A stretch of DNA of 64,000 nt from an uncultured Oscillospiraceae bacterium (GTDB lineage Bacteria; Bacillota; Clostridia; UMGS1883): NCBI GenBank assembly GCA_964385605.1, contig CAYLPQ010000001.1, positions 77,896 to 141,895 on the forward strand. The letters are read 5' to 3'. A model generated the notes under the pieces. The model did no database searches and had not been told where the DNA came from. It saw only the letters and a program-made list of their open reading frames with translations. A program made the position numbers and the translations under genes. Shown one piece after another: positions 25,381 to 54,390 of the stretch; within the stretch, counting starts at the first letter, position 1, and the number at the start of each line of letters is the position of its first letter.

Positions 25381-25399
25381 TATCTTTGAGGTGATAAAA

Positions 25400-26252: not shown

Positions 26253-26298
26253 TAATATATAAGCTCATGGCAAGTTCACATCGCTTTAATTGCGTAAA

Positions 26299-28848
26299 TT
26301 AATCGCAAAGTTCGTCATTCATAAATGCAACAGGTGAAATACCGTCTGCACCTATTACAAAAATCTTAATCTGGTCTACTCCGGTATTTGAGTAGGGATG
26401 CTGTGTAGACATATTCTTAAGAAGACCTGTATCTGCCACAAAATTCTCATTATCAGTAAGACTGATTGTTTTTACAAGGATAAGTTTTCCTTCAAGATAC
26501 TGTGCAACTACAATCTTTTCAGTGCCTGTGATACCTTCAAGCCAAAGTCCGTTGAAAGCACTTTTTCCGTTAAGTCCAAGCCCGCGGATAGATGCTGGAG
26601 CAAGTCTTTTTGTAAAAGTCTTTGACTCTGTAACTGTACCGTCAGCACTTGTAGCAGTGATTGTAAATTCAACTGTCTCGGGACTGTCAACGTCGATTGC
26701 TGTTACAGTCTCACCATTGACTTTGTACGTGATTGATGGACCGTCTGTCTGAAGAGTATATCTTGCAGGATTGTTATGAACATCTGTCTCATCCGTGTAG
26801 AAGTCAGAATTGTTATTAATCCATGACTTACTGATAGTCTTTTCAACAAGAGCTCTGTTGGTAAGTGTAGGATGAATTACATCTGAAGCATAGAGAACTG
26901 CTGCTGCGTTAAGAGCTGCATTTACTTCTGCTACATTTGCATCACTGAAGCTGCGGAGAGTTACGTTATCAAGCCATACATCGCCTGCAGCACTTGATAC
27001 CGTTGAAATACCACGAACTGTAGCGCTGGTTGTATTCGTCTTATAAGCATTTCTTCTTACAATGGGATGTGGTGTAACAAGAATACCGTCTGCGTAAACT
27101 TCGTATGTCTGCGACATGATGTTGAAGTCAAATACAACATTTATCCACTCACCTTCCTTATCCTGAAGAAATTCGGGCATAGGAAGCCAAAGTGTATCTA
27201 TATCATTACTTCTTAATCCGGTACCTGATTCATTTGCTACTGATTTTGTTGTACCAAAACCAATCTGTTTTGATTCAAAGTTAAATACAAGGAAACAGGA
27301 ATCTGCGCCCTGAATACCGGCAACCTGAACACCGCCATAGTTTGAGGTTGCTTCCTTGTCGTGGCGATATTTAACGTCTGCACTTGCAAGAACTCTGTCT
27401 GCAAATCCAGCGCCGGAGGCACCTGAACCTGCGCTAAGTGTACCGCTGCCTGCGGGAGCATTTTTGTGAAGAACAGTTGCATGAGCAGGATTTTCGTCAG
27501 TAACGTAACCTGTCTCACCTGCCTTGTCTTCAAAATCAATTCTTGAAAGGTTTGTTGTGCCTTCCTGTGCTACCTGAAGGTAGTAGGGAATTGTTTCAAC
27601 AACTTCGCCTGCTGTGATTGTAGCAGTGAAGGTAACGTTTTTCGGAATAAATGAATTTACAGCAGTTACCTTACCATCGTTTGTGATAACAGATGTATCG
27701 CTTGATTCATATGCAATTGTAACATTAGCTGATTCTGCAGGAGATGCTACAAGGTTAAGGTCGCTGTCAACACCAACAAGCTTTCCGTCAGAGGTGAGCT
27801 GATTTGCAAGAACAAGATTTTTGTAATAATCTGCTCTTTCCTGATCGGGGAGTGAGCCGATTACACCGTCTGCAGTAGATTCTGCATAAACATAGATATC
27901 ATCAACAAAGATGTGAGCAGTTGTTACTCTGAAGGGGAATGTAACCTTAACTGCCTTGTCAGATGTAAAATCAGGAACGTATGTCTTTGATGCATCGTAT
28001 GTAACATATTCTGTAAGCAAACCGTCCTGATAGTATTCAACCTTGCCAAGCTCTTTGTCAATTCTTATTGTAAGGTCAACAAAGTCTGTTCCGGGAACTG
28101 ATGTATTACGGCTGTTATTTACCGCAGTACCTCTTGTATGCCATGGATTAGCGGTCAAAAGGGCACCACCGTAAACTTTTCCTGCCCAACCGGCGCTACC
28201 AAGCATAAATTCGCCGGCTTTTGTGCCGCCCCAACTAATGTTCATGTTAAGACCTGAATGGGTTGTAGCCTTTACAGGAGCATAAACCTTTGCCTTCATA
28301 ACATAGTAACGTGCATTCTGAATTCCGGGGGCTTTGTTCATAGTGTAAACGAAAGCATCACCTGTAGCAGGAGCTGATGTATCACCATCGTTGTTCTTAA
28401 AGCCGAGCTTTGCATAGCTGTTGGTACCGTCCACAACATATTCGGCAGCAAATGTACCTGCACTGCTTGTTGCTACTGTCCAACCCTGATCTGTGCCGAT
28501 TGCATCGCCATTTTCAAGGTCATAATCCTCAAAAGTAACGATTTCGCTGACCCCAACGATTGTCTGGGGCTGTACCTTTACAGTAAAGCTTGTGCCGTTT
28601 ACTGTAAGAGTAACCTCCTCTACATCAAAAAGTGAACGGGTAACTGTACCATCAAGAGCAATTACAGCCTCGTTCGATGAAGTAACCGTTGCACCTTCAG
28701 GGAAAGTGAGGTTACCTGTGATAAATTCGGGAACCTGACCGTTTGAAATATCCTCAAACAAAACAGCTTCGCCTTCTGCCATTACAGTAAATGCACACAT
28801 TGAAAGTGCCATCATCATTGCAAGACAGAGTGCCATAAATTTTTTCAT
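26299..28848 (-). CDS. secreted 849-aa protein with ConA/LamG-like and Ig-like beta-rich domains (function unknown)
   Basis: The signal peptide is MKKFMALCLAMMMALSMCAFTVMA. It is beta-rich with two regions that look like LamG/ConA-like lectin folds. It has no SLH or catalytic motif I can name. Confidence 0.5.
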   Translation of the reverse strand: MKKFMALCLAMMMALSMCAFTVMAEGEAVLFEDISNGQVPEFITGNLTFPEGATVTSSNEAVIALDGTVTRSLFDVEEVTLTVNGTSFTVKVQPQTIVGVSEIVTFEDYDLENGDAIGTDQGWTVATSSAGTFAAEYVVDGTNSYAKLGFKNNDGDTSAPATGDAFVYTMNKAPGIQNARYYVMKAKVYAPVKATTHSGLNMNISWGGTKAGEFMLGSAGWAGKVYGGALLTANPWHTRGTAVNNSRNTSVPGTDFVDLTIRIDKELGKVEYYQDGLLTEYVTYDASKTYVPDFTSDKAVKVTFPFRVTTAHIFVDDIYVYAESTADGVIGSLPDQERADYYKNLVLANQLTSDGKLVGVDSDLNLVASPAESANVTIAYESSDTSVITNDGKVTAVNSFIPKNVTFTATITAGEVVETIPYYLQVAQEGTTNLSRIDFEDKAGETGYVTDENPAHATVLHKNAPAGSGTLSAGSGASGAGFADRVLASADVKYRHDKEATSNYGGVQVAGIQGADSCFLVFNFESKQIGFGTTKSVANESGTGLRSNDIDTLWLPMPEFLQDKEGEWINVVFDFNIMSQTYEVYADGILVTPHPIVRRNAYKTNTTSATVRGISTVSSAAGDVWLDNVTLRSFSDANVAEVNAALNAAAVLYASDVIHPTLTNRALVEKTISKSWINNNSDFYTDETDVHNNPARYTLQTDGPSITYKVNGETVTAIDVDSPETVEFTITATSADGTVTESKTFTKRLAPASIRGLGLNGKSAFNGLWLEGITGTEKIVVAQYLEGKLILVKTISLTDNENFVADTGLLKNMSTQHPYSNTGVDQIKIFVIGADGISPVAFMNDELCD

Positions 28849-28986: not shown

Positions 28987-30096
28987 TTATAGTTGATACG
29001 TTTTCAAGGGCAAGCTCATTCCTCTTGCGGCATTAGCTTTTACTTCCTCCGGAAGCCATACCGGAAAGTCTTTTACAAGGCAGCTTTTTAACTCACCACT
29101 TTTGTATCCATCAAGAATATCCTCGCAATAGCGCAGTGATTTTTCCTTGTCTGTTATTCTTGGAGTTTCTCCGAAAGCCTTTATAAAGCTGTTAATGTAA
29201 ATATCCATAACAACATTCCCGGGAAGACGTGCAGGATTAATGACAACATTTTCGCCGTAAATTTCAGGATTAAGGTCATAATAGACCGCGGTGAAGGGTT
29301 CACTTTCTTCAAGGAACTTACGGACAGGGGAATGCCTTGTTACAATTTCAAAGTCATCATCCTCTTCAAAACGGCAGTTATATGTATCTGTGCCATAGAT
29401 AACCCTGTCGCTGAACTTTGTGAAAAATTCGTTCCAACCTTCAAGGTCATCTGAAAATCTGATTATAAAATCACCGCCGAGGGCAAGGTCAACTGAAACT
29501 CCGGGATAAGTATCCATAATCTGTTCAAGATGTTTTCTGTCATGCGCCATATTGAACATATGAGCAAATGTAACACGAAGACGGGGATGCCGTTTTAAGA
29601 CATTCAGCATTTCATTCTGAATCACATCTCTCGCCTTTGTGTTTTCACTGTCGGGAAAAGCTACAAAATGACCTATATGCATTACAACCGGAAACTGGGT
29701 CTCTTCCAGAAATGCAAACATTGGCTCATATTTTTCACTGTCAAACTTGCAATTAAAAAGTTCGTGATAGTCTGTCTTTCCTTCAAGGATTTTTATCCCG
29801 TCAAAACCAAGGTCATAATAGAGCTTCACCTGACGGAGAAATTCATCGGCATTATCCCTTTTGTCACCGTGGTGAACAATCGCCGCAAAAGCAAACACAT
29901 TCTCTCCCATCTTATCTTTAAGATAAAGAGCCTTAAGATTCGAGGTGTTATCAATTCCCAGGTCGCCTGCGTATTCGTATGAAAGCACTGCGATTTTATC
30001 AAGATTAAGATACTCTACTTCTTTTTTCACGAGCAGCAATGTTTCTTCAATAGGACGATGAAAAGCAATATGCCAATGACCATCATTGATTTTCAC
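28987..30096 (-). CDS. metal-dependent TIM-barrel hydrolase, amidohydrolase-2-like (possible sugar lactonase)
   Basis: The N-terminal DGHWHIAFH and internal HHGD and MHIGHF histidine clusters are present. The protein is cytoplasmic. The assignment is tentative. Confidence 0.4.
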   Translation of the reverse strand: MKINDGHWHIAFHRPIEETLLLVKKEVEYLNLDKIAVLSYEYAGDLGIDNTSNLKALYLKDKMGENVFAFAAIVHHGDKRDNADEFLRQVKLYYDLGFDGIKILEGKTDYHELFNCKFDSEKYEPMFAFLEETQFPVVMHIGHFVAFPDSENTKARDVIQNEMLNVLKRHPRLRVTFAHMFNMAHDRKHLEQIMDTYPGVSVDLALGGDFIIRFSDDLEGWNEFFTKFSDRVIYGTDTYNCRFEEDDDFEIVTRHSPVRKFLEESEPFTAVYYDLNPEIYGENVVINPARLPGNVVMDIYINSFIKAFGETPRITDKEKSLRYCEDILDGYKSGELKSCLVKDFPVWLPEEVKANAARGMSLPLKTYQL

Positions 30097-30174: not shown

Positions 30175-32964
30175 TTAATCGTATTGTGAGTTCATATTTG
30201 TTATAACAACAAGGTCGTATACCGTACCGTCAATACGTTTTAAAAGAACCTTTGTATCCGGATTGAAATTCTCGTAACCTTTTGCTGTAAGCTGTGCCGC
30301 TGACGGAATTTTATCTCTAGTTATAACCTTGACTTCTTTTGTTTCGCAATCAAATTCAAATATGGACATTGAGCTTGATTCTGACTGAAGGATTGTCGTC
30401 CAGAAGGTTTCTTCAGTAGGGGTCTTATTTCCAGACATATTAATATAGTCTGCATTGGCTTTACTGTAAGTGCTGATTTTGTTACTGCCTACATGACACG
30501 GATAGCCCAGAATATAATAGTTTTCGTCATCGTTAATTTCTGTCTGTCCGTTCATGTCAAAATAAGTGTAATCGGGGTCAGTATCCCTCTGGGGAGAATA
30601 TACAATCCTGGCCCTGCTTATTCCCTCTTCATTATCAAAACCGATTTCAAAAACATCACCTGCAAGGATTTTTCCGTTGCTATCAGGGTAACGTTTTTTT
30701 ACTGCCTCGGAAAGAATGCCATCATATGATTCAACAAAGGATCTGAAGTCCTGTGCCCACCAACCGTTTATAGCCTGTTTGAATTCCCCGTCAAAGTCCT
30801 TCTGCACATAGGCTTCGGTAACTACAAAGAGTCTTGAATTTATATCTAGCGGTTCAGACACTACAATCGCTCCGGCTTCCCATCCGTCATCCGCATCATA
30901 AAGCTTAAGATAACAGCTACCGTAACGTCTTGTATAAGCCGTATAATCAATAACACTGACCAGTTCTTCGTTGGTTTCTTCCACAGTTTTAGAAGTGGTG
31001 TTAACGGCAAAAATTTTAGTATTTGAAGTTATAATCTGATTTCCGTTATAGGTTCTCAATCCATTTATACTCTTTGTTGAATATCCTGATTCACTTACAA
31101 AATCAAGGCTGAAGTTCTCAAGGTCAAAGCCGAACATTGAGCCTGTATTATCAGTTGCGGAGTCAAGCTCCTTCAGTTTTCCGTCAGAGTTTATTCTCAC
31201 CATTACAAGCTGCGGCTTGATATTGCCTGTCGCTGCATCGAAGAAAATACTTGATGAAAGGATGTCATTACCGGTCTTATTTTTTATGCCGTCAAAAGTC
31301 AATTTATCGGCAACCGGAACTGTTACATAATCATTGCTTTCAAGAAGAAGCTTTACACTTACTCTACCGCCGTCAAGTCCCTGTCCTGTCTTTCCTGCAT
31401 CCAGCATATAAGCATACTGGAGTCTGCCTTGTGTTTCAATAAGCATCGCTATGTTTCCCTCATAGTTAAGAAGCACTCTATATGACGACCCCGGCACAGG
31501 GGCATTAAAAGTTACCGGCTTTGTATTCATAAGGGTTTCATAGGTATTGGAAAATTCGTAAACCATATCACCAAATATAACTCTTATTTTTCCGTCTTCA
31601 GCTGTTTCGACAGATTCTGCAACAATTTCCAAAGTCAGCTCGGAAACAATAAAACGAATTTTTTCATTATTCTTGCTTCTGAATACCGATACAACACTGT
31701 TTTCCTTTATGCCGTCGGGCAAAATTTGCTCACCTGCGGCATTCTGGAAAATGCAAGTTTTATATTCTCCGTAATTTATAAACGCATAATCATCCTCGGA
31801 ATAAGTTGCCACAAACTTTTTTGTCTCTGCATTGCAATTTTTAAAAACAATATCGCGGTATTCCTCTGCTATTACTGTTTCATAGTCACCGTCCATATCT
31901 GCATCGATAAGCTTTAGGGTTCCGTCCTTAATTTTGAGGGTTTCGCCGTTAAAGGTTTTGTCAAGACCTCCGTTATAGATAAGGTTGGCATACGGGTCTA
32001 TCCTATATTTTTTCTTTTTACCGTTAATTTCCGCAGTCACACAAGTCTTGGAAAAATCTCCGGACTCTGTCAGAAGTTCATAAGCTTTTACTGTTACGAT
32101 GTCATTTCTGCCTGTTTTTTCACTGACATAAAGCAGTGCATTATTATCCTGCTTATAGTAATACTCTACATAACAACCAAGAAATTCTCTTTCCCGGTCA
32201 TCTGTCCCTGTGAGAACTTTTTTACCTATTTTACTACAATCAATCGCAAGAGCCGTTTCTCCGTTTATCGCAGTAATACCGTTATCTGTCATAACACCTT
32301 CGCCGATATAGATACTATGATATACGTTAAGCGCTGTGTTATCCTCATAGCTTGCAAAATAAGCCTTATCATTTGTGAGGTAAACAATTTCATAGACCTC
32401 TGCTTCTGCAGATAACTTTATAAGGTTTGCCGCTGTATCAAATGTAAGAGGTGCATCAAAATCGTAGGGTGGATTATCTACAATACCGATATTATATGCA
32501 CAACGCAAGTATCCATCCGAATAACCTCCTGCTACTGTAGCCGCCGGGGTATATCCAAGAGCAGTAACAACCGTTTTTATCGCCTGCCTGTATGTAATAG
32601 GTTCGTCCGGTAAAAATCTCCCGTCTCCCACACCATTCATAATACCCAAGGCTGCCATAGCATCAATTTCACAGGCATAAAGATTACTTTGCGGAACATC
32701 AGTGAAACAGTTATTAGTGTTATAATCTTTGTTTATCCCTAAAAGATCTGCAACCATTTTGGCAAATGTAGCCCTGGAAACTGTAGAGTCCGGCTTTTCT
32801 TCGGGAAAACTATATATTTCAAGGAATGTTATGAAATCGACATTTTTCTCATAATCTGCAGTGTCTGTTACCGATGTCTTATTTTCCTCCTGTGCGAAGG
32901 TTGGCATTCCGGACACAAGCAGTGCTATCAGCAGGACAAGCGCAGTTATTTTATTAAATCTCAT
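30175..32964 (-). CDS. cell-surface protein with three N-terminal SLH domains and a large beta-rich C-terminal region (929 aa)
   Basis: After the signal peptide (MRFNKITALVLLIALLVSGMPTFA) come SLH-like repeats: FTDVPQSNLYACEIDAMAALGIMNGVGDGRFLPDEPITYRQAIKTVVTALGY and flanking repeats. Confidence 0.65.
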   Translation of the reverse strand: MRFNKITALVLLIALLVSGMPTFAQEENKTSVTDTADYEKNVDFITFLEIYSFPEEKPDSTVSRATFAKMVADLLGINKDYNTNNCFTDVPQSNLYACEIDAMAALGIMNGVGDGRFLPDEPITYRQAIKTVVTALGYTPAATVAGGYSDGYLRCAYNIGIVDNPPYDFDAPLTFDTAANLIKLSAEAEVYEIVYLTNDKAYFASYEDNTALNVYHSIYIGEGVMTDNGITAINGETALAIDCSKIGKKVLTGTDDREREFLGCYVEYYYKQDNNALLYVSEKTGRNDIVTVKAYELLTESGDFSKTCVTAEINGKKKKYRIDPYANLIYNGGLDKTFNGETLKIKDGTLKLIDADMDGDYETVIAEEYRDIVFKNCNAETKKFVATYSEDDYAFINYGEYKTCIFQNAAGEQILPDGIKENSVVSVFRSKNNEKIRFIVSELTLEIVAESVETAEDGKIRVIFGDMVYEFSNTYETLMNTKPVTFNAPVPGSSYRVLLNYEGNIAMLIETQGRLQYAYMLDAGKTGQGLDGGRVSVKLLLESNDYVTVPVADKLTFDGIKNKTGNDILSSSIFFDAATGNIKPQLVMVRINSDGKLKELDSATDNTGSMFGFDLENFSLDFVSESGYSTKSINGLRTYNGNQIITSNTKIFAVNTTSKTVEETNEELVSVIDYTAYTRRYGSCYLKLYDADDGWEAGAIVVSEPLDINSRLFVVTEAYVQKDFDGEFKQAINGWWAQDFRSFVESYDGILSEAVKKRYPDSNGKILAGDVFEIGFDNEEGISRARIVYSPQRDTDPDYTYFDMNGQTEINDDENYYILGYPCHVGSNKISTYSKANADYINMSGNKTPTEETFWTTILQSESSSMSIFEFDCETKEVKVITRDKIPSAAQLTAKGYENFNPDTKVLLKRIDGTVYDLVVITNMNSQYD

Positions 32965-32980
32965 ACTTAATCCTCCTGAC

Positions 32981-34798
32981 TTATTTTTCTATCAATTCGC
33001 AAATCAACTTTACTGCCTGTGCTCTTGTAAGCTCTTCCATTGGACGGAAGCTTCCGTCTTCGAAGCCTGAAATTATACCTGCTGCTACGAGCATTTCTAC
33101 ACTTTCTGCAGCATATTCTGAAATTTCATCAAAATCTGTTACACTACCACTACCGGAAAGAGTAATACCATTCTTTTTGCACAGGCGCGCAATCATTACA
33201 GCTGCGTCCTGCCTTGAAACGGGTTTTGCCGGCATAAATGTTCCGTCACCCATTCCATTAATGATGCCTGAATCCACTGCAATTTTTATGTAAGAAGCAG
33301 ACCATCTGTCATTTTCAACATCGCTGAAGTTTAACTCTGCCTCTGATTCTTCAAGTTCAAATGCTACTACCAGCATTTTCACAAACTGCTCTCTAGTAAC
33401 TTCCTTATCAGGCATAAAGGATCCGTCGGGATAACCTTCAACAACTTTCTTTGAAGAAAGATTTTTTATTGAAGTGTATGCCCAGTGAGAATCTGTAATA
33501 TCAGTATAATACACACCCTGCACTTCATCTTTTTCTTTATCAGAACTGATAAGATTATCATTAACACCCAAAATGTTATTCATATTTGAGCTTCCGCCTG
33601 TGCCGGAGAATCCGCCACCGTCAGAGCTTCCGCCACTACTGCTTCCACCGCCACCGGAGGATCCGCCACCGCCTGAAGATGACCCACCTTTAAGTACATT
33701 TATACGTTTTTTGAGAGCTTCGAGTACCTGCGACGGTTTTTCAAAATCTTTGTCTACAAATGCCTTGTTTACCTCGTAATCTGTATACTTTTCACAATAG
33801 ATAGCATAATCTGTCTTATCAAGACCAAGAAGTACAGAATACTTTTCTATAACGGGTGCAACAGTTGTTGCATCCTTCGTATTAAGAAGAGCAAGTGCTA
33901 CCGCCTGCGCTATTGCAGTTTTTACATCCGTCATACATTCAGGCGCATCATCCTTAAGAATTGTTGCTGCAATTGGATAAGCTGCATCCTTCATAAGAGT
34001 ATAATGTTCATTCTCTTCTGAAAAGTCATACCCGATAAGATTACCGTACTTGCCGATGTAATTTTTAATATCTTCACTACTGATGCTTTCGGGAAATTCA
34101 CGAAGTGCATCTACAATTTCGAGAACATTTGTAATATCCTGCATTGAATTGAATTTTTTTCCTGTAGCAGAAGAAACTTTACAGTCGTTATTTCTTACTG
34201 AAATAAACTTTTCATGTATTTCGTCTTTGTTAGCCTGATAGTCATCGCCAAGCTCAATTCCCAAAAGGAGCTGATTTTGTCTCAAAAGTTCTTCAAGCTC
34301 ACTTGCTTCTGCATTTTCAAATGCCGGAAGTGTTACATGAGTGATAGTATCATCTGTGTAATACTGTCTGAGAATTGATGCTTCAACAGGCATTCTGCCA
34401 CTACCACTGGCTTTTACTATGAGGTACTGCCCGTTTTCAATGCCGTCAAGAGCAAAACGAATGCTATATTCACCGTTTACAGATGCCTTTACCTCGTTCC
34501 AACGAATGAGCTTTGTAATATCCTCAAGAGGCTTCATTTCCGCAGGATTCTCTGAAAGCTCACCATTTTCAAGTCTGATATCCTCAAGACCGTTTATAAA
34601 TGCAGGGTCATATACTACTATATTTATAGCCTGACCATATTTTGCGGGAGTTGTTCCACTTACAACAAGGAATTCTCCCTCATCAGAAAAGTCAAACTCT
34701 GCATTAAGAACAAAACCTTCAGCTGCACCGACCTGTACAGAACACAATGTGAAAAGCATTGTCAATGCGAGAATTAAACTGATTAACTTGTTTTTCAT
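32981..34798 (-). CDS. cell-surface protein with a helical N-terminal region, a Gly/Ser linker and three C-terminal SLH domains (605 aa)
   Basis: After the signal peptide comes the linker GGSSSGGGGSSGGGGSSSGGSSDGGGFSGTGGSS. The C-terminus has SLH repeats: WAYTSIKNLSSKKVVEGYPDGSFMPDKEVTREQFVKMLV, WSASYIKIAVDSGIINGMGDGTFMPAKPVSRQDAAVMIARL and AAESVEMLVAAGIISGFEDGSFRPMEELTRAQAVKLI. Confidence 0.7.
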   Translation of the reverse strand: MKNKLISLILALTMLFTLCSVQVGAAEGFVLNAEFDFSDEGEFLVVSGTTPAKYGQAINIVVYDPAFINGLEDIRLENGELSENPAEMKPLEDITKLIRWNEVKASVNGEYSIRFALDGIENGQYLIVKASGSGRMPVEASILRQYYTDDTITHVTLPAFENAEASELEELLRQNQLLLGIELGDDYQANKDEIHEKFISVRNNDCKVSSATGKKFNSMQDITNVLEIVDALREFPESISSEDIKNYIGKYGNLIGYDFSEENEHYTLMKDAAYPIAATILKDDAPECMTDVKTAIAQAVALALLNTKDATTVAPVIEKYSVLLGLDKTDYAIYCEKYTDYEVNKAFVDKDFEKPSQVLEALKKRINVLKGGSSSGGGGSSGGGGSSSGGSSDGGGFSGTGGSSNMNNILGVNDNLISSDKEKDEVQGVYYTDITDSHWAYTSIKNLSSKKVVEGYPDGSFMPDKEVTREQFVKMLVVAFELEESEAELNFSDVENDRWSASYIKIAVDSGIINGMGDGTFMPAKPVSRQDAAVMIARLCKKNGITLSGSGSVTDFDEISEYAAESVEMLVAAGIISGFEDGSFRPMEELTRAQAVKLICELIEK

Positions 34799-37699
34799 TT
34801 ATTTTCCATCCTTTCCCGAGATGACTTTTACGTCGACAGAAATAATCGTGGCAGGACTACCTGCAGCACCTACACGGAAATCTGTTCCTAATAAATCCAT
34901 ATTTCCCAGACATATATCGTCAAACTTAAAGGTCTGTGTTACAATCTTGCCGGTATTTTTTCTATCAATATAATTTTTTTCAGTGGTAACCTTGTTCACA
35001 TATTTATGCGAATTCTGAATCCATCTGTGGTAATAGAACGTAATGGGAAGAGTTGTATCATCTTTGTAGGTTATGGAAATCTCTGCCGCTACGTTGTCGC
35101 TATCTACTACCTCGCGCTTTACGTTTACATAAAGCTCTTTTCCTGCAGGAACTTCAGTTCCAACATATGTACCGTCTTCTGCGTAGAGAGGATTTACATC
35201 AAATGCAAAATCACCCTCGTATGCGATGGCATCACAGGATTCGGAAATGTCATATCTTCCGCCGGAGGCAGGATTACCGGTGATATCAGAAACATCTGCC
35301 CAACCGAACTGTGCTATTTTGAAAGTTTCATCCCAGCAACCAAAGATTGCATAAGTGTTTTTTGGACTCATCTGGGGATGAAGATGTCCGGGATTTGCGG
35401 AGTTTTGAGGGAGGAATGCGATTGTTTCTGTAGCACCGGTCTCGGCATCAATCACAAAAAGTCCTGAAAGCTTCGCTGATGAACCGTATTTATTATCTGC
35501 AGCAATCCATCTGCCGTCATGACTTATCATTGAGTGATTAGTACCTGTACCTGCACTTCCAAGAATTGTGGGGGCGATACCGTAGTCCGCCTTTATATAT
35601 CTCTTGTCAGTACCATCAATTCTCTGCAAAAGGAAATTTGTATCAGGACCAACAAATCCACGCATTCCGTCAACATAAGTGGAACTGCCTACCTTGCCAA
35701 TCCACTCACCGTCATAAGACCAGAACTCGTGACCGGCATTTTCGCCGACGTAACCGCTGCCGGGCTTTTCGGGGTCAGGAGATCTGAACCATTTTTGTTC
35801 AACTATGTTATAGTATTCGTCAGTATCAGTATTTACAATCCATACTCGCTCGGGATTAAGACTTCCCTCGTAAAAATACGCAAGAGTTGCATTTGATGTT
35901 TCGTGAGCAAAGAAATACAGATTACTGTACTTTGGGTTTGGATTTATGCACGGATGATTAGGTGCATAGTCAGGAAAATCAAAACCGTAGTAATGACTTA
36001 AATCCCATTCACCGGTTTTAATGTCAAATATAGGGAATCTGGTCATCAGCTTGTTGTCAAATTCACCGCTGTTATCTGCCCACCAAACACTTAACTTTGA
36101 TTCGTCATTGTTAACCTGCAAAAGTGATGGAGAACTCTTTTGCCACTCCGGAAGCTTGCCTATAAAAGTTGCTTCATATGTGTCAAGATCAAGCTTCCAT
36201 ATTTCGTATTTTCTGTTTATATACCACAAATTGTTAAGAGGGGTAACCATACAGTTGTTTTCGTTGGGAGAATCTGAAATGTATTTACACATTTCTGTCT
36301 TAATATTATATTCCCATATTTTATTGTCCGCAGTTCTGAAATAAATTCTGGTTTCATCCATAGACATACAGTTCATAGTAAAATACGGTTTTATTGCATT
36401 CTGTCCAAAGAAGTTAACTGTGTAATAGGTTCTGCCCGTATATTTATCTACATACGTTTTCTTGGGAATCTTAAAATCCGTACTCATAAGCCAATCCCAG
36501 ATATTGTCATCGTTTGCGTTGGCAAGGGTTTCCATATTGTAATCTCCAGAATTCATACCGTCTGTAAACGGACAGTAACCTGTATCGGGATTAGTCATAG
36601 AAAAACAGTTCATTGCCAGAAGCACAAACGCATCAACGTCGGCATTTTTCTCCGGTTGGAAAAGCATACTTCCCACCGTAATGAGTTTTTTGTCTTTTGC
36701 AAGCTGATAAACGTCGGTCTCTTCGGTTACATTTTCACCAATAAGCTTAAGATACCACTCTACAAGCTCTTTCTGCGTAAAATAATCTTTTGCACCGAGT
36801 GTATCGCCTTTTTCTATAATTCCAAGCTCAATTGCCATTGCCACATAGGGATCCGCCTCGGGACTCACATCGCTAAAGCCTGATTTTATATTTTTCGAAA
36901 GAGCCTCATCTTCCATTCTGTAGGTTTTTATAAGCTGTGTAAGCGCCTCTTCCCTCGTAAGCTCTTTGTCAAGGCGGGGTTCAAAAACTTCTCCCTCACC
37001 GTATCCGTCAAAAACCTCAAGAGTATGAAGTGAGTTTGCTTTTTGCCTGTTAAATGTGCCTATCTTTTCGCCAGGCTTTGCAGTACGGCTTATGTTACGC
37101 ACCTCTACCTTGGAGAATGAGTTATATGCACCTGAACGTATTCTTATATCTGCACCGTTATCAAATTTTCCTGTAAATTCCGCATCATCAATATGTATCC
37201 TTACACGGAACCAGGTTCCCTGTGTTTTAACACCGTTTTCGTCAAGACCAAGCTTGTATACTCTTTCAGATTTAGTGGTCGTTGAACCCCTCGGTTGATA
37301 TTCCACGTAGAAATATCCGCCTCCGCCATAGTCCCAATAGTCAAGTATTATTTCAAAAACACTGTCGTCTTTACCTGCAAAGTTCTCATCAAGCTTGAAA
37401 TAGAAGTAGTTCTCAACATAAACCTGTCGTGCCTCTACCCCGTTCCATTCAACCTTTTCACTGTAAAGTTCACTGTATCTGCCCTCTTCCTCGGAGCCAA
37501 GATAAGTCATCTTATCCATTTTCGGCCGACTACTGAAAATGATTGATGCATTTTCGGAATTTGGGGTATCAGGACCTGTTACGGCAGTCTGCATTGATGC
37601 GTAATCATCATCTGATGCTGCAAAAGTATTTACCGCAAAAAGGACAGACATTATTAAAATAAACGCAAAGGATATTAATCCAATTCTTTTCCTTTTCAT
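34799..37699 (-). CDS. secreted 966-aa beta-propeller-like protein (function unknown; possible lyase or binding module)
   Basis: The signal peptide is MKRKRIGLISFAFILIMSVLFAVNTFA. A long beta-strand-rich region has repeated W/Y-rich blades. One SLH-like segment appears mid-protein (FSDVSPEADPYVAMAIELGII). Confidence 0.45.
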   Translation of the reverse strand: MKRKRIGLISFAFILIMSVLFAVNTFAASDDDYASMQTAVTGPDTPNSENASIIFSSRPKMDKMTYLGSEEEGRYSELYSEKVEWNGVEARQVYVENYFYFKLDENFAGKDDSVFEIILDYWDYGGGGYFYVEYQPRGSTTTKSERVYKLGLDENGVKTQGTWFRVRIHIDDAEFTGKFDNGADIRIRSGAYNSFSKVEVRNISRTAKPGEKIGTFNRQKANSLHTLEVFDGYGEGEVFEPRLDKELTREEALTQLIKTYRMEDEALSKNIKSGFSDVSPEADPYVAMAIELGIIEKGDTLGAKDYFTQKELVEWYLKLIGENVTEETDVYQLAKDKKLITVGSMLFQPEKNADVDAFVLLAMNCFSMTNPDTGYCPFTDGMNSGDYNMETLANANDDNIWDWLMSTDFKIPKKTYVDKYTGRTYYTVNFFGQNAIKPYFTMNCMSMDETRIYFRTADNKIWEYNIKTEMCKYISDSPNENNCMVTPLNNLWYINRKYEIWKLDLDTYEATFIGKLPEWQKSSPSLLQVNNDESKLSVWWADNSGEFDNKLMTRFPIFDIKTGEWDLSHYYGFDFPDYAPNHPCINPNPKYSNLYFFAHETSNATLAYFYEGSLNPERVWIVNTDTDEYYNIVEQKWFRSPDPEKPGSGYVGENAGHEFWSYDGEWIGKVGSSTYVDGMRGFVGPDTNFLLQRIDGTDKRYIKADYGIAPTILGSAGTGTNHSMISHDGRWIAADNKYGSSAKLSGLFVIDAETGATETIAFLPQNSANPGHLHPQMSPKNTYAIFGCWDETFKIAQFGWADVSDITGNPASGGRYDISESCDAIAYEGDFAFDVNPLYAEDGTYVGTEVPAGKELYVNVKREVVDSDNVAAEISITYKDDTTLPITFYYHRWIQNSHKYVNKVTTEKNYIDRKNTGKIVTQTFKFDDICLGNMDLLGTDFRVGAAGSPATIISVDVKVISGKDGK

Positions 37700-37714
37700 A
37701 GTCTACCTCCCATA

Positions 37715-39274
37715 TCAGTCGGCGGCAATTATTCTGATGGCATTAATTGCTATATCTTTATTGGAAGTAATTGTGTTTGTACCACTTCCTATATCTGTGA
37801 TATCAAAAGTCATCTTCTGCCATTTTCCGCTTTCTGAAACAGTCTTTTCCTCTCCGTTAAGAGTAATTACTGTATCGTCTGTGGGAGCATTGTACGTAAC
37901 TATAACCTTTACATTTCCCGTATAGAGGTCACTGTCAGTTACATTGAACTCAACTGCACCTCCGGGAATTGAAGAAAGTTTTATTCCTGTACGGTTACCA
38001 ATTTTTTCAGGAATGAAGCCTGCCGCATTTGTTGTCAGGTCACACACGACCGTCCCTCCGTCTGCAGTAAGGTATGAGCCGGCATTTTTCTTAAGAGTAT
38101 AAAATTCGTCTGTTTCCCCATCTGTATCAAAAATCGGATACACTTTGAAATCACGAACCTTAATACCGGTTGTCCGCCAGTCATCGCAGCTTATTCTGAA
38201 GTTGTAGTAACCATTACCCAGATTGTCGTTGTACTGGAAAGTATCACCTGCCTGAAGGGGATAAACTCTTCTTATAGTTTTCCATGTATTTGTATTTGTT
38301 TTTGTAATTGCAAGTGATCTGTTCTGCCTGTTTCCGTCAGCTCTCGTGACATAGGCATCAAAAGTCATTTTTGAAGATCCTTCATCAAAATATGTAAATT
38401 CATAAGCAACAGCCTCTGCTCCCGAAGTCTCTGCAAAATAATCGTCTGAAAATCTGTAAGTAAGAAATGCCTGTCCCTGAACACCGTTTGCAATACGGTA
38501 TGTTGACCAGAAGCAGTCAAGTCCGCCCGCCTGTGTCTTTGTAACATAGAAGTTTCTGTTTTCCTCCGTGAGAGTACCTGTAAAAATGAAATTTCCGTCA
38601 GGCGACTGTGTGTATTCATCAGTAGTGATAGCCGCATTTTTGTAAAGTGTTGTTGCACTTACTTCACCAACTTCGGATTCCTTACCCTCTGTATCTACTG
38701 CACGAACTTCAAAATTGTAATCAGTTCCACTTGCAAGATTCTCAACAGTGCAGTTGAGATTTGCACAATCCTCTGCCACAAGCATCCCTTCATCGTAGAT
38801 ATTATAAGTAAGGTTATCTGTGCTGTCATAATCGTCAAGGGCACCTTCCCAGTTGATTGTGGCATCTGACACATTTGCAATTGCAGAAAGCCCCTCTGGA
38901 GCTGTAGGAGCATTGTTAAGAAGAGACATATTTCCGGAAAGACTATTCCAGACATTGTAGGCAAGAACTCCGCCATCCTCGGTCTTATCTTCAAGAGTTA
39001 AGCTGATTGTATTTCCATCGAGAAGAGAAACATCCTCACATACCTCTGCATTAACAGAAAGTATTCTGCCGGAATCAGGGTGCATATATGCCGCAACAAG
39101 CACCGCACTCTTCCCTGCAGGCTTTGAAAGAAGCTCCGCATTAACTGTAGTTACCCCGTTTTCTGTCTGCACCGTAGTTTCCCCAATAATAACTCTTTCC
39201 TCTGTTGCGCTTACATTAACGCATCCAAAAAGAACCATCATTGTAAGCATAAGCACTAAAAACTTTTTCATCAT
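37715..39274 (-). CDS. secreted protein with a fibronectin type III domain and a LamG/ConA-like region (519 aa)
   Basis: The signal peptide is MMKKFLVLMLTMMVLFGCVNVSA. The FN3 signature is NLTYNIYDEGMLVAEDCANLNCTVENLASGTDYNFEVRAVDTEGKESEVGEVSATT. Confidence 0.55.
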   Translation of the reverse strand: MMKKFLVLMLTMMVLFGCVNVSATEERVIIGETTVQTENGVTTVNAELLSKPAGKSAVLVAAYMHPDSGRILSVNAEVCEDVSLLDGNTISLTLEDKTEDGGVLAYNVWNSLSGNMSLLNNAPTAPEGLSAIANVSDATINWEGALDDYDSTDNLTYNIYDEGMLVAEDCANLNCTVENLASGTDYNFEVRAVDTEGKESEVGEVSATTLYKNAAITTDEYTQSPDGNFIFTGTLTEENRNFYVTKTQAGGLDCFWSTYRIANGVQGQAFLTYRFSDDYFAETSGAEAVAYEFTYFDEGSSKMTFDAYVTRADGNRQNRSLAITKTNTNTWKTIRRVYPLQAGDTFQYNDNLGNGYYNFRISCDDWRTTGIKVRDFKVYPIFDTDGETDEFYTLKKNAGSYLTADGGTVVCDLTTNAAGFIPEKIGNRTGIKLSSIPGGAVEFNVTDSDLYTGNVKVIVTYNAPTDDTVITLNGEEKTVSESGKWQKMTFDITDIGSGTNTITSNKDIAINAIRIIAAD

Positions 39275-39569
39275 ATTGTCCTCCTCTTTACAGTTTATAT
39301 ATTTTCAAAAAAGTTCTTTCTATACTATACCTAACTTAAGTATAGTGTTAATCACTGTTTTATTCAATGTACAATTATTCGCAGTTAATTCATTTTTATT
39401 CTAGAGAACCTATTATTTGAAAATTTAGAAAAATGTTACTGCTGTGTTTGCATTTCAATTCTAATTATATTCTGCAACATTTTTTTCCTAATTTCCTTTA
39501 ATTTATTGCTTACAATTTATTAAAACAAGAAAATTTTGTTGTAACAAGAGTATTAAGAAGTATTATTAA

Positions 39570-39610
39570 TAAAAAAGCAGGCTGGAGCCTGCACACAAGT
39601 CGCGCACATA
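39570..39610 (-). repeat. GC-rich repeat element copy 1 (A-run + GCAGGCTGGAGCCTGC hairpin + conserved tail ACNNNNGTCGCGC), acting as a terminator on the minus strand
   Basis: The plus strand reads AAAAAAGCAGGCTGGAGCCTGCACACAAGTCGCGCACAT. A homologous copy in reverse orientation lies at 60865..60908. Confidence 0.5.
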
Positions 39611-39651
39611 CAAAATGCAAACATAATTTCAAGCAAATTTCCTATATAGTT

Positions 39652-39685
39652 AAAAATGCGTTACGGAACACCGTAACGCATTTTT
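39652..39685. terminator. strong bidirectional rho-independent terminator 3' of the M20 gene
   Basis: AAAAATGCGTTACGG-AACA-CCGTAACGCATTTTT is a 10-bp perfect stem with an A5 run upstream and a T5 run downstream. It lies 12 nt after the stop at 39697. Confidence 0.75.
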
Positions 39686-42745: not shown

Positions 42746-42824
42746 AACAAACTATCCTTTCGTCTGTGATTTTTTCATATATAGGATTCATTCCATCTAA
42801 ATGATGATTAATTCAAATTTTGCA

Positions 42825-42950
42825 ATCCCTCCACCACCTACGGTGGTCCCCCTCCCTTTACACAAGGGAGGCTCACCGAGGCTTTAGAAGCCGCGCAACA
42901 AAGCCTTCCCTGTGCAAGGGAAGGTGGCACACGAGAGTGTGACGGAAGGG
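42825..42950. other. GC-rich (~62% GC) multi-hairpin element of unknown nature (candidate structured leader RNA or sRNA)
   Basis: Five consecutive local inverted repeats are present: CCACC-TACG-GGTGG, CCTCCC-TTTACACAA-GGGAGG, GGCTT-TAGA-AAGCC, CCTTCCC-TGTGCAA-GGGAAGG and CACAC-GAGA-GTGTG. On the plus strand two loops are UNCG- and GNRA-type tetraloops. The element lies between the terminator at 43015..43055 and the deacetylase operon start at 42745. Confidence 0.3.
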
Positions 42951-43014
42951 TTGTTTCTAAAAATCATCATTTATCCAAAATGTTACTCACGATAAAGCGC
43001 GCAAATTCCTATAC

Positions 43015-43055
43015 GGTAAAATATTTGCACCAAAGACCGTAGTCTTTGGTGCAAA
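43015..43055 (-). terminator. rho-independent terminator 3' of ORF 43075..44235
   Basis: A 15-bp perfect stem ATTTGCACCAAAGAC-CGTA-GTCTTTGGTGCAAAT is followed on the minus strand by ATATTTTACC. Confidence 0.7.
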
Positions 43056-43074
43056 TAATATTATTTGTTGGTTT

Positions 43075-44235: not shown

Positions 44236-44350
44236 TTTAAAAACCTCCAAATCGTTTTCAATAATACTATTTAATACTAGCAAGAAAACCGCTGTTTTTC
44301 TATACCAATTTCTGTTTTTTGCGGACAAATTCTTTATTTTCACCTTTAAA

Positions 44351-51714: not shown

Positions 51715-54390
51715 TTACTCTTCTATAACAAATATTTCACGAATATAGTGATAGCGATAGTTAAGAACCATAAGTGTACCATCGGGCAGGCTTTGCGGGC
51801 TTCCGGTGGATGGAATCAAAATAGATTCATCTGCCGATTCAAATTTTCTTGTTTCGTCTGAATATTTATAAACGATACTACCATTCAGATATGCCGCCCA
51901 CGGACGTTCTTGCCCTACATATACACTTACTGCAGAGCCGTTCTTTCGCCACAATCTACCAGTCTGGCTCCAGATTGTGGGGAATCTTCCGCTTCCTTTT
52001 ATTACTGTTCGTTCAGTTAATGTCAAACCTTTACTTGGTGAATATATTACATAATCAGAATGGATTTTCAGTTCACCTTTAAGAGTCTTCTGGCACTGAA
52101 CAATACTTCCCGGTTCAGGAACCGAACCATCAAGCGAAGTATAAACAAATTCTTCTTCAACACCGCGAAGAAAACCTTTTACCATAGGCTGAAATTCTCC
52201 ATCCTTGTCCTTGCCCATATAAACACTGTTAATTGCAAGGAAATATGAGTCAAGCACTTCTACATCACTGTCTGCAGAGGCATCGGGCATATACAGAAGA
52301 ACGGATGCAGTATATGTATCATCGCAATCAAACACCTGCATATTGGCATAATCGTCATTATTCTCAAATATAGAAGCATCAACTATCTGCATATCATCTT
52401 CTACAACTTCGCCGTTATTACATGGAAGGTAGAAAACCTTTGTTGTTCCGGAAAGATGGAACACATGATTATATGAAGATTCATGAACAAAGCTTGATGT
52501 TGAGTTCTGGAAATTATAGGTTTCTGATGTGGTTATCGCATCGAAATCCATAGAAAATTTATCAAGATTATATCCTAATGCTGTAGCATTTGTATATTTA
52601 TCTATAGCAGTAACAACACCTTCATCATTAACACTGTAGCATATCATCTGCGGAATGAAATAACCTGCTTCATCATAAAACAGGTTCATTACATCTGCAG
52701 TTTTATAAGTTTTTAATTCATATACATCAGAAGAAAATTTAATCTTATCTGCAATGTCAAATATCTGAACTTTTCCTTTATGGTCAAACAGCTTTATCTC
52801 ATATTGTTTGGAAAGTGTTCCCTTTGTTGCAGCATCTATAGCATATGCATATGCGTTTTCTTCACTGCTCACTTTATATACTGCAGCAATTTCTCCTATA
52901 ACGTCAAAATAAAATTCTGATCTTAACCCTGATTTCATTGGTGTAAAACCTGTGTTTTCAGGAAGGCTCATATATTGCTCTGAAACGGCATATTCATAGC
53001 CGTTAATCAGCACATAGGTGTTATCATCTTCAACAATTGCTTCCACTGTACCGCCAACACCGCTACGGGTTGGTATAATCGTTACAAGGGAACCGTCCTT
53101 TGAACGTGCTACACTGAGAACATCCCAGTTAGAGAGCTTAAGAAGCTGTTCCCAGCCACCCCATATGCCGTCATTACCGAGAACTCTATATGTAACGTTG
53201 TTGTTCTTATCCCTGCGAAGTGTTTTTTTATAGTGACAATTTATGACATCTTCTGCAACACTTTCGCAAACGTAGTTTTCATAATTCCAAATAAAACAAA
53301 CGTCATAAACATCATCATCGTTATGGTCTATAAGCTTTACATAACCGGTAGGAAAATCAAGGTCATCAATATCAAAGTCGAGATCGTAAACATCGTTATA
53401 CATAAAACGATGTTCTTTTGAAAGATCTGCTGTTTGTGTTTTCCCTGTCTGAGTTTTATAACAGAACTTTCTCAATGAAAATTCCGGAGAATCAGTATTT
53501 AAGTCACCTATTTTTATCATAAGTTCATTATTATCTGATGTAGGAAATGCGTATAACAGCTTTTCAGCATCTGCATTCCCATCGGTAGCATAAGCTTCAA
53601 CCATATAACCAAGAAGCGAAGGAACATATGTATCGGAATAGTTCAAAACAGTGCTTCCGATTTTAACACTTCCCTCGGCAGTATCTTTGTTTCGTGAAAG
53701 CATACTTCTGCCATCTACACTGTTTACAACAGCTTCAAATTTACGGATTCCCATATATTTACCGAGAATAGTGCTACGGGTTTTTGTGTTGTAACCAGCC
53801 TTATTAGTCACAGAAGTAAGTTCAACAAGCTCTACATCAAGGCAATTGTATACCATCTGGGCAAGCTCGGCTCTGCTTACAAAATTACCCTGATTATAAT
53901 TTACATTTTCCAAAATATCGAGCTTACTTGCGCATATAGCATAGCCCAAGGGGTATCCACCGTTTTTCTCTGCCTGAACTTCATATCCGAGAATATATAA
54001 CAAGCATTTCACTGCCTGCTCATATGTCACATAGGTATTGGGCATAAAATTACCGTTTTCGTCACCAACCATAATTTTTTGAGAATGTACTGTTGCAATC
54101 TGATGATAATACACGTGACCTTCATTAACATCTGCAAATTCAGGCTTTTGTGCAGTCTGCATATCGTGCATATTCATAAGCTTACAAATAATTGAAGCAA
54201 ATTCTCCTCTTGTAATTTGAGATGCATCAGAATCGTTGTTTGAAAATGCATCCATTATTCCCAAAGCTTTTACAACCTGCAAATGGTCTGTATTGACAGA
54301 TAGCTGTACAATGCTTTCTGCGGATGCCGGAGTCGCAGATATAAGCAGCAATATACACAAAACAATTGCTAAAACTTTACGCATATTCAA
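51715..54390 (-). CDS. cell-surface protein with N-terminal SLH domains and a large beta-rich C-terminal region (891 aa)
   Basis: The signal peptide is MNMRKVLAIVLCILLLISATPASA. The SLH-like repeats are ITRGEFASIICKLMN..., FADVNEGHVYYHQIATVHSQKIMVGDENGNFMPNTYVTYEQAVKCLLYILGY and YAICASKLDILENVNYNQGNFVSRAELAQMVYNCL. Confidence 0.6.
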   Translation of the reverse strand: MNMRKVLAIVLCILLLISATPASAESIVQLSVNTDHLQVVKALGIMDAFSNNDSDASQITRGEFASIICKLMNMHDMQTAQKPEFADVNEGHVYYHQIATVHSQKIMVGDENGNFMPNTYVTYEQAVKCLLYILGYEVQAEKNGGYPLGYAICASKLDILENVNYNQGNFVSRAELAQMVYNCLDVELVELTSVTNKAGYNTKTRSTILGKYMGIRKFEAVVNSVDGRSMLSRNKDTAEGSVKIGSTVLNYSDTYVPSLLGYMVEAYATDGNADAEKLLYAFPTSDNNELMIKIGDLNTDSPEFSLRKFCYKTQTGKTQTADLSKEHRFMYNDVYDLDFDIDDLDFPTGYVKLIDHNDDDVYDVCFIWNYENYVCESVAEDVINCHYKKTLRRDKNNNVTYRVLGNDGIWGGWEQLLKLSNWDVLSVARSKDGSLVTIIPTRSGVGGTVEAIVEDDNTYVLINGYEYAVSEQYMSLPENTGFTPMKSGLRSEFYFDVIGEIAAVYKVSSEENAYAYAIDAATKGTLSKQYEIKLFDHKGKVQIFDIADKIKFSSDVYELKTYKTADVMNLFYDEAGYFIPQMICYSVNDEGVVTAIDKYTNATALGYNLDKFSMDFDAITTSETYNFQNSTSSFVHESSYNHVFHLSGTTKVFYLPCNNGEVVEDDMQIVDASIFENNDDYANMQVFDCDDTYTASVLLYMPDASADSDVEVLDSYFLAINSVYMGKDKDGEFQPMVKGFLRGVEEEFVYTSLDGSVPEPGSIVQCQKTLKGELKIHSDYVIYSPSKGLTLTERTVIKGSGRFPTIWSQTGRLWRKNGSAVSVYVGQERPWAAYLNGSIVYKYSDETRKFESADESILIPSTGSPQSLPDGTLMVLNYRYHYIREIFVIEE

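Follow-up and report, generated by a model that had tools for sequence, protein, structure and literature searches.

A four-gene surface cassette of gut Clostridia with a predicted SLH-anchored, PL22-like lyase

Introduction

Far less is understood of how Gram-positive gut bacteria retain, cleave and take up complex glycans at the cell surface than of the Sus paradigm in Bacteroidota. The question is raised by four consecutive genes of an uncultured Oscillospiraceae bacterium, here termed A to D, which lie on a 64,000-nucleotide stretch of contig CAYLPQ010000001.1 (‘the window’, to which coordinates refer unless they are prefixed by a locus number). A first-pass annotation had read their products as a wall-tethered multiprotein polysaccharide apparatus, held in place by S-layer homology (SLH) domains and devoid of any recognisable catalytic domain. 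If these proteins form an apparatus, what does it act on, and which of its parts might do the chemistry?

Here, we report that protein B very probably is—judged by its sequence and its structural model—a metal-dependent, beta-eliminating uronate lyase akin to polysaccharide lyase family 22 (PL22), and that it bears a predicted wall anchor of its own. Together with the conservation of the cassette and the genes around it, this points to a lyase complex at the cell wall.

Results

Four secreted proteins are encoded in one compact unit

In the list of open reading frames, all four genes fall on the minus strand: A at 39274..37715 (519 aa), B at 37699..34799 (966 aa), C at 34798..32981 (605 aa), and D at 32964..30175 (929 aa), in agreement with the four consecutive, co-oriented genes that the first-pass annotation had described. 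The gaps between them measure 15, 0 and 16 bp, with the ATG start codon of C immediately following the stop codon of B, and each of the four starts has a Shine-Dalgarno-like site, that of A reading gaggagg. In every protein, an N-terminal, signal-peptide-like segment constitutes the sole strongly hydrophobic stretch, which bears out the four signal peptides proposed before. A-B-C-D is one tightly packed unit of secreted proteins.

Protein B contains a PL22-like propeller

Scans of B against Pfam and NCBIfam returned no match. A search of 5.8 billion clusters retrieved a B family of 41 members, all ~950–980 aa in length, 33 of which were aligned; seven of these 33 touched the PL22 model PF14583 weakly (best E = 1.9e-7). 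When compared with the PDB, the family profile matched the PL22 structures 3pe7 (E = 3.9e-13) and 3c5m (E = 1.7e-12) over B residues ~414–789.

The AlphaFold 2 (AF2) model of B (predicted local distance difference test score, pLDDT, 86.7; predicted template modelling score, pTM, 0.78) consists of the signal peptide, a beta-sandwich (residues 30–205), a helical region (218–406), a propeller (414–802), and a second beta-sandwich (810–960). Projected onto the minus strand of the window, the seven-bladed, PL22-like beta-propeller maps to 35285..36472 (residues 410–805), flanked by an N-terminal sandwich module at 37073..37615 (residues 29–209, delimited by the model strands) and a C-terminal one at 34817..35275 (residues 809–961). 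The two sandwich modules are homologous to one another (hhalign, 93.2%). A Foldseek search of the PDB with this model placed 3c5m and 3pe7 on top (E = 7e-19 to 2e-18; template modelling score, TM(target), 0.72–0.74), some 7–8 orders of magnitude ahead of the generic WD40 propellers that came next (~5e-11), and one PDB title among the structural matches contained the words ‘in complex with manganese’. The beta-propeller noted for the 966-aa protein in the first-pass annotation is hence recovered in both the model and the structure search.

To map individual residues, we aligned all B paralogues with five ~360-aa PL22-like proteins of Paenibacillaceae (Paenibacillus and Cohnella) and with the PL22 enzyme YeOGL. 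We focused on six YeOGL positions, which we take to be the Mn2+ ligands (three histidines and one glutamine), the histidine base and a stabilising arginine. Five are invariant in the aligned set, with R217 corresponding to R618 of B, H242 to H657, H287 to H722, H353 to H772, and H355 to H774. The sixth, Q350, corresponds to N769 and is occupied by Asn, Asp or His across the set. With profile homology to PL22, a matching fold and retained active-site residues, the earlier statement that the cassette lacks a recognisable catalytic domain is wrong as far as the B propeller is concerned, and we are fairly confident that B is a lyase.

A different view would hold the cassette to be non-catalytic and to serve capture or adhesion, its propeller being a binding or structural element or putting the histidine cluster to some unrelated chemistry. 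Beta-propellers are versatile binding platforms, and the silence of Pfam and NCBIfam, along with the low identity to PL22 structures, would suit such a role. Against it stand the specificity of the profile homology, which is significant for PL22 in particular, the clear lead of PL22 structures among the fold matches, the retention of the six YeOGL active-site positions across B paralogues as divergent as 23–31%, and the recurrence of GH88-family unsaturated-uronyl hydrolases as neighbours. GH88 and GH105 enzymes process the unsaturated ends that lyases make, and their presence fits B as a lyase acting upstream of them. We consider the non-catalytic view improbable.

SLH triplets are found on B, C and D

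The SLH triplet fold, as known from SpaA and Sap, binds pyruvylated secondary cell-wall polymer. In C, three canonical SLH domains occupy 32984..33520 on the minus strand (residues 427–605); they gave three Pfam stretches (E = 2.2e-38) and matched the SLH part of Sap (9g93, E = 6e-29), and they carry the motifs TREQ, SRQD and TRAQ, with T468, E470, R529 and R592 being invariant in the family. These domains are preceded by a Gly/Ser-rich linker (33584..33688, minus strand; ~residues 371–405, read from the sequence), whose poly-Gly is conserved across the C family. In D, the triplet is N-terminal (32404..32856, minus strand; residues 37–187); a single stretch was returned by Pfam, the family profile covered positions 8–160 of the 182-aa SpaA SLH chain (E = 1.9e-15), and R64 is invariant. 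The layout that had been proposed for both proteins—a Gly/Ser linker and three C-terminal SLH domains in C, three N-terminal ones in D—was thus recovered.

B had been described, together with A, as free of SLH domains. This does not hold for B, whose helical region between the first sandwich and the propeller (36479..37057, minus strand; residues 215–407) is a divergent SLH triplet. The B-family profile weakly matched the SpaA SLH chain via residues 221–347 (E ~1e-3), blastp aligned B residues 223–295 with the SLH part of C (E = 2.5e-4), and hidden Markov models (HMMs) of the C and D SLH regions matched many B paralogues at the corresponding stretch. Profile–profile comparison of B 215–408 was clearer, giving 97.4% (E = 1e-11) against the SLH region of C and 95.9%, over 143 columns, against that of D (hhalign). 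T248 and R249 are kept in at least 90% of members, Q309 and E311 are invariant, and, in all three proteins, the SLH-motif residues are among the most conserved positions within the SLH regions. Three tandem SLH motifs, including a TRAE-type motif, are present in each of B, C and D, and the B region is helical in the AF2 model, as in the three-pronged fold of SLH triplets. Three of the four cassette proteins therefore carry SLH triplets, and B is predicted to be anchored like C and D.

The cassette is conserved and duplicated as a block

Scanning the B alignment on one genome per species yielded 32 loci (given numbers with the prefix L, as are the loci sampled later). Twenty-seven belong to metagenome-assembled genomes (MAGs) of uncultured Clostridia/Oscillospiraceae, whose titles name UMGS, MGYG-HGUT and Hadza gut assemblies among others; Paenibacillus and Cohnella account for the remaining five, all of them small PL22-like genes. 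Several genomes harbor multiple B loci: at least seven in JAZRTB, five in JAZQAO and five in JAZPYX.

Using tblastn and custom domain HMMs, we found B, C and D to be adjacent and co-oriented in nearly all Clostridia/Oscillospiraceae loci with enough flanking sequence, the exceptions being L037, where an ATP-binding cassette (ABC) importer is inserted between B and C, and L031, where neither C nor D was seen. An A homologue precedes B in most loci; at three of them (L003, L010, L011), the A-type protein is enlarged and a second A-related protein is encoded just upstream. The order (A)-B-C-D is the same in L002–L030 and L039, down to ~31% identity in B. With regard to co-conservation in related genomes, on which the first-pass annotation had made its reading depend, the four genes recur as one unit in ~25 loci, which come from a small number of gut Clostridia/Oscillospiraceae MAGs.

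Pairwise identities of the B propeller, the C head and the D body rise and fall together (Spearman 0.80–0.83 over 300 locus pairs, a correlation to which common phylogeny contributes). When restricted to paralogues within the same MAG, the coefficients were 0.56–0.69, and D bodies of one MAG share 18–38% identity between copies. The correlated identities imply that the genes of the cassette duplicate and diverge together; as judged from these comparisons, the four genes are passed on and multiplied en bloc.

Further PL22-like genes occur near some of these loci. Nine of them (L016, L017, L018, L021–L023, L025, L027, L029) encode, after D, a giant protein of ~1400–1770 aa (for instance at L016:10899-16193 and L017:17360-22666), in which a second PL22-like propeller is followed by a B-type beta-sandwich; this portion is C-terminal in five loci and internal in four. 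At L014 and L024, a ~670-aa protein composed of a propeller and a sandwich is encoded ~8 kb upstream of B. In L032–L035 (Paenibacillus, Cohnella), ~360-aa PL22-like genes with all catalytic residues kept lie within ~4–5 kb of genes for very large proteins of 1585–1877 aa with C-terminal SLH triplets, a conventional arrangement against which the fused architecture of B stands out.

C and D form a pair that extends beyond this cassette

C comprises a signal peptide, an N-terminal domain (residues 27–370, part of which the first-pass annotation had read as helical), the linker and the SLH triplet. The N-terminal domain is specific to these cassettes: a single-sequence search returned nothing but close relatives (19 matches), and its family profile found no credible match in the PDB. 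In D, the triplet is followed by a body of ~740 aa (30196..32397, minus strand; residues 190–923), modelled as an all-beta string of small, tandem OB-fold-like barrels (AF2 pLDDT 84.5, pTM 0.56). Neither Pfam nor NCBIfam matched this body, and the PDB held no credible structural counterpart, the bodies of Sap and SbsB outside the SLH part included. Structure prediction and search, which had been suggested as a check, were hence informative for B, with its PL22-like propeller, and returned nothing credible for the D body.

Window D is identical to the database protein P0042 and belongs to a very large family. Searching 1.84 billion cluster representatives with the D profile (HMMER) gave 7,712 matches at E ≤ 1e-30; the best 150 (clusters at 50% identity) are almost all full-length, ~870–1050 aa, with E < 1e-121. 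At E ≤ 1e-3, there were 147,555 matches, many of them probably to the SLH part only. The combination of D-type SLH triplet and D body was present in 145 of the 146 relatives checked. The only names found for this family are generic (‘S-layer homology domain-containing protein’).

The size of the D family keeps a structural, S-layer-like role alive as a rival. According to this explanation, C and D—or D at least—would be structural proteins that form, or insert into, a surface lattice, B would be an enzyme associated with the S-layer that merely has the anchor in common with them, and the cassettes would remodel or patch the surface layer instead of capturing substrate. Sap, EA1 and SbsB begin with an SLH triplet, to which a series of beta domains is attached, for a total of ~800–950 aa, and D with its all-beta body is of the same design and size; its generic family name points the same way. 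However, outside the SLH part the structure search gave no fold match of D to the bodies of Sap and SbsB, and its genes are not kept in a few housekeeping copies, as at least seven cassettes are found in one MAG and at least five in others, many of them divergent and each linked with a lyase paralogue, an AraC regulator and catabolic genes of its own. A natural fusion that joins D to a head resembling a carbohydrate-binding module (CBM) and a glycoside hydrolase (GH), described below, likewise speaks against it. We regard the lattice explanation as unlikely. The related concern, raised in the first-pass annotation, that C might be a standard S-layer protein present everywhere is eased by its cassette-specific N-terminal domain and revived in part by the breadth of the D family.

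To see D in other surroundings, genomic contexts were sampled for six distant representatives. In five, the gene directly upstream ends in a canonical SLH triplet. L037 reads B-like gene, solute-binding protein (SBP), permease, permease, C, D; L039, with SBP, AraC, A, B, C, D, aBig_2, GH4 and amidohydrolases, nearly reproduces the layout of the window; L040 holds three GFO/IDH/MocA genes, permeases, SBP, C and D; and L041 resembles the second cassette of the window (see below), while at L043, too, an SLH triplet terminates the product of the gene before D. The sixth, P0144 (1766 aa; L042:2016-7316, Logan run SRR10963010), is a natural fusion of the C-position protein with D that was seen on three contigs. 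Its order is signal peptide, CBM/GH-like head, SLH triplet, Glu/Pro-rich linker, D-type SLH triplet, D body. Fusions of this kind are classical evidence that two proteins act together, here the C-type and D proteins. In all cases examined, the gene immediately before a D-type gene encodes a protein with an SLH triplet at its C-terminus.

These contexts allow for a broader reading. Monoderm Bacillota would widely possess a so far undescribed surface platform of two wall-anchored components, the C-D pair, that takes interchangeable glycan-processing heads. The SLH triplets of C and D would come to lie next to each other on the wall polymer, glycan chains would be bound or guided by the D rod, and the upstream partner would supply an exchangeable head that is non-catalytic in our cassette and CBM/GH-like in P0144. 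We put this forward as a rather doubtful generalisation. If true, the pair would, with cryptic extracellular PL22-like lyases, amount to a Gram-positive functional counterpart of the Bacteroidota surface utilisome, and it would contradict a proposed rule that His/Mn-type pectate-lyase active sites are cytoplasmic.

A second C-D pair lies beside a protein with a Dockerin_1 match

The window itself contains a further pair on the minus strand, as already noted in the first-pass annotation, next to an enzyme with a dockerin-like segment. C2 (54398..56875) ends in three SLH domains (Pfam, E = 5.9e-35), and its residues 458–574 weakly match the HMM of the C N-terminal domain. Its start is likely at 56875, the position given in the first-pass annotation, where there is a ribosome-binding site (taggagg), rather than at the listed 56947, which overlaps the AraC gene at 56910-58397. 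D2 (51715..54390) has an N-terminal SLH triplet and a D-type body; it shares 26% identity with D across 787 aa (E = 2e-42) and matches the D-body HMM at E = 4e-174. For D2, the ATG at 54384 is a more probable start than the TTG at 54390.

The adjacent gene (48019-51714, minus strand; likely true start near 51696) encodes a 1231-aa protein with DUF7402, F5/8 type C and FG-GAP matches, a weak C-terminal match to RGL11, and a Dockerin_1 match (26.7 bits, E = 6e-6). The latter may reflect Ca-binding loops of a PL11-like propeller.

Combined with the layout of C, whose head, linker and C-terminal SLH domains recall a scaffoldin, this Dockerin_1 neighbour suggests a cellulosome-like arrangement, with C or D as a cohesin-bearing anchoring scaffoldin to which dockerin enzymes such as the 1231-aa protein would dock. 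Yet a scan for the cohesin family PF00963, a check proposed in the first-pass annotation, detected no match in A–D, in C2 and D2, in any other window protein scanned, or, at E ≤ 0.1, in 62 family members. A and B lack dockerins, the model of D shows OB-like barrels instead of cohesin jelly rolls, and the Dockerin_1 match falls within the FG-GAP/RGL11-type, Ca-binding propeller region and may be spurious. A cellulosome at this locus is hardly credible.

Protein A shares modules with B

Protein A consists of a signal peptide, an N-terminal beta domain (residues 25–120), an FN3 domain (~122–204) and two beta-sandwich modules (205–519). The FN3 domain (38672..38902, minus strand; residues 125–201), already recognised in the first-pass annotation, is supported by Pfam (fn3, E = 8e-6) and by the match of the A family profile to PDB entry 1k85 (E = 2.5e-16); outside of it, this profile had no credible match in the PDB. 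For the LamG domain, also assigned to A before, a scan at E ≤ 0.1 gave no match in A or in 12 relatives. The C-terminal half of A is homologous to the sandwiches flanking the B propeller, with hhalign values of 93.6% for the C-terminal and 88.7% for the N-terminal sandwich.

A putative lipobox of A (LFGC) was rejected because its cysteine is not kept among homologues.

Transcription and gene content of the window

A 422-bp spacer 5' of A contains two terminator-like hairpins and a promoter-like site. The latter, TTAACA-16-TATAGT at 39324..39351 on the minus strand, was picked by consensus match only; one hairpin (39577..39592, minus strand) marks the end of the upstream M20 peptidase unit, and the other maps to ~39645-39682. 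Given these elements, the tight gaps and a ribosome-binding site at each start, A–D look like the beginning of one transcription unit, which may continue into an amidohydrolase gene (30096..28987) and the gene of an 849-aa, aBig_2-containing protein (28848..26299).

In keeping with a Gram-positive polysaccharide utilisation locus (PUL)—a regulator, an ABC importer and carbohydrate-active enzymes (CAZymes) in one place—the window is a large acidic-glycan utilisation region. It holds two GH88-family proteins (Pfam PF07470), a GH43 and a GH4 enzyme, the RGL11-like/DUF7402/F5-8C protein with the dockerin-like match, a PcRGLX-like protein and a heparinase II/III-like protein, besides an ABC importer (SBP and two permeases), four AraC regulators, and oxidoreductase, deacetylase and peptidase genes. 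Within 10 kb on either side of 25 non-redundant related loci, AraC regulators were counted at 12, GH88-family proteins at eight, ABC permeases at eight, and SBPs at seven.

Several neighbours deserve mention in their own right. The 849-aa secreted protein (26299-28848, minus strand) had aBig_2 as its only domain match; homologues occur within ~10 kb in 8/25 related loci, usually just after D, and the one at L014 is 36% identical over its full length. This protein may belong to the module as a fifth member, or it may be an enzyme that has escaped recognition. Two ~700-aa paralogues, 50% identical to each other (21012-23129 and 12245-14326, minus strand), have no Pfam match, and homologues (~48–50% identity) are encoded upstream of the cassette in L021, L023 and L027. 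A 1064-aa secreted protein (6769-9963, minus strand) has a C-terminal heparinase II/III domain; its residues 4–132 are weakly similar to the N-terminus of C2 (E = 2e-5), a likeness that may reflect a common signal peptide plus Ig-like module. The minus-strand genes at 40848-44376 and 60916-63689 encode GFO/IDH/MocA oxidoreductases, a xylose-isomerase-like TIM barrel, a Big_4 protein that also shows a weak 3-keto-disaccharide hydrolase match, a PIG-L deacetylase, a metallo-beta-lactamase-fold protein and an M20 peptidase. Together, these genes recall pathways of oxidative (3-keto) glycoside cleavage; near related cassettes, GFO/IDH/MocA genes are found in 5/25 loci.

The window is transcribed nearly entirely from the minus strand and is uniform in composition. 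All annotated genes but two lie on that strand, the exception that was examined being the AraC gene at 25391-26209, and the GC (guanine–cytosine) skew is below zero in every 2-kb segment but one (26001–28000, +0.012). An Rfam scan of the 64-kb window identified no RNA family or element. The window sequence is identical to a Logan contig from run SRR14307658, and the database protein P0001 is on record for a 194-kb NCBI contig as well.

Discussion

As the best explanation of this locus, we propose, at a probability of roughly 60%, that the cassette encodes a substrate-inducible, wall-tethered uronate-glycan lyase complex and is one copy of a modular, substrate-specific surface depolymerase unit that belongs to a Gram-positive polysaccharide-utilisation region. 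That it is, in more general terms, a wall-anchored glycan-processing unit we hold to be probable, and we only tentatively cast C and D as a scaffold or glycan-binding platform. The general idea of the first-pass annotation, a wall-tethered multiprotein polysaccharide apparatus, is supported by the co-conservation and co-diversification of the four genes and by their CAZyme, ABC and AraC context; its non-catalytic part has to be given up.

The proposed lyase complex would work as follows. B would be the catalytic subunit, cutting a uronic-acid-containing glycan outside the cell by metal-assisted beta-elimination, and its flanking sandwiches, together with the homologous pair in A, would serve as substrate-binding modules. 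C and D would form an obligate non-catalytic pair whose adjacent SLH triplets sit side by side on the wall polymer, with the D rod of OB-like barrels and the C head making up a scaffold or glycan-binding platform that keeps lyase and substrate at the surface and passes products on to the binding protein of an ABC transporter. The unsaturated oligosaccharides would be imported and then trimmed by GH88/GH105-family hydrolases encoded nearby, and AraC-type regulators would render each paralogous cassette inducible by its own glycan.

Several points weigh against this proposal. B is only ~17% identical to solved PL22 enzymes and stays below the PF14583 threshold in the window, and its metal-binding glutamine is replaced by asparagine, albeit a conservative change. 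Known PL22 members are reportedly small, cytoplasmic, exo-acting oligomer lyases, as Abbott, Gilbert and Boraston are said to have set out in J Biol Chem in 2010; an extracellular, polymer-acting role for B is an extrapolation from such enzymes. A has no detectable wall anchor, no more than about one third of the related loci have an ABC transporter within 10 kb, and the roles of A, C and D in the cassette are ones that we infer.

What would be new here is the combination. SLH-tethered polysaccharidases and PL22 lyases are each already known, the latter to our knowledge only as cytoplasmic oligomer lyases. Our literature searches (SLH and lyase, PL22 and SLH, SLH-bearing Gram-positive PUL) found no description of the module. 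Within the literature searched, four features appear undescribed: a PL22-like lyase that is modular and secreted and has an SLH triplet inside its chain; the obligate coupling of this lyase to a pair of C-terminal-SLH and N-terminal-SLH proteins; the fold of D, which appears novel; and the multiplication of the cassette to seven or more copies in a single genome. If the mechanism holds, the C-D pair could mark surface glycan-processing loci in monoderm genomes. As the B clade is invisible to Pfam and NCBIfam, CAZyme annotation of that kind would probably miss these genes in gut metagenomes. One genome holds the cassette at least seven-fold and two others hold it at least five-fold, which implies a broad acidic-glycan diet. 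The strict adjacency of C and D, along with their natural fusion, makes a physical complex directly testable.

How, then, does the cassette compare with known systems? So far as is known, PL22 enzymes such as YeOGL (3PE7) and VPA0088 (3C5M) consist of a single domain, are ~390 aa long, reside in the cytoplasm and take short oligomers as substrates. B shares with them the seven-bladed propeller (profile E ~1e-13), the arginine, the catalytic histidine and three metal histidines, as well as the pairing with downstream processing of unsaturated uronates. It differs in being a secreted 966-aa protein whose propeller is set between two beta-sandwich modules and joined to an SLH triplet, besides the low identity, the sub-threshold PF14583 score and the exchange of Gln350 for Asn already mentioned.

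Alike in location are the SLH-bearing xylanases, pectinases and glucanases of Thermoanaerobacterium, Caldicellulosiruptor and Paenibacillus, extracellular enzymes held on the wall by an SLH triplet and encoded in sugar-utilisation loci; the 1585–1877-aa SLH proteins of L032–L035 are examples of such anchored Firmicutes polysaccharidases. In B, by contrast, the triplet is internal and highly divergent, the enzyme comes with the obligate non-catalytic C and D and a fourth secreted protein, A, and the whole A–D unit is duplicated many times per genome. Anchoring scaffoldins of cellulosomes (SdbA, OlpB, Orf2p) resemble C in layout, with a flexible linker that joins a head to three C-terminal SLH domains, and in being non-catalytic and encoded next to enzymes, but neither cohesin nor dockerin was detected in the cassette, and D has no cellulosome counterpart. 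Unlike the S-layer proteins of Bacillales (Sap, EA1, SbsB), D has a body of OB-like barrels without a match to their assembly domains, and its genes are present in multiple, locus-specific copies, each invariably preceded by a gene for a C-terminal SLH protein.

The Sus-like utilisomes of Bacteroidota, in which a surface enzyme, glycan-binding surface proteins and an importer are duplicated as PULs, offer an analogy only, for there is no homology, and our cassette belongs to a monoderm host with an anchor to wall polymer in place of lipid or outer membrane and an ABC instead of a TonB-dependent importer. In its logic, the arrangement is nevertheless alike: a conserved non-catalytic surface core, here C-D, is duplicated per substrate together with a surface depolymerase, under a dedicated regulator and beside an importer.

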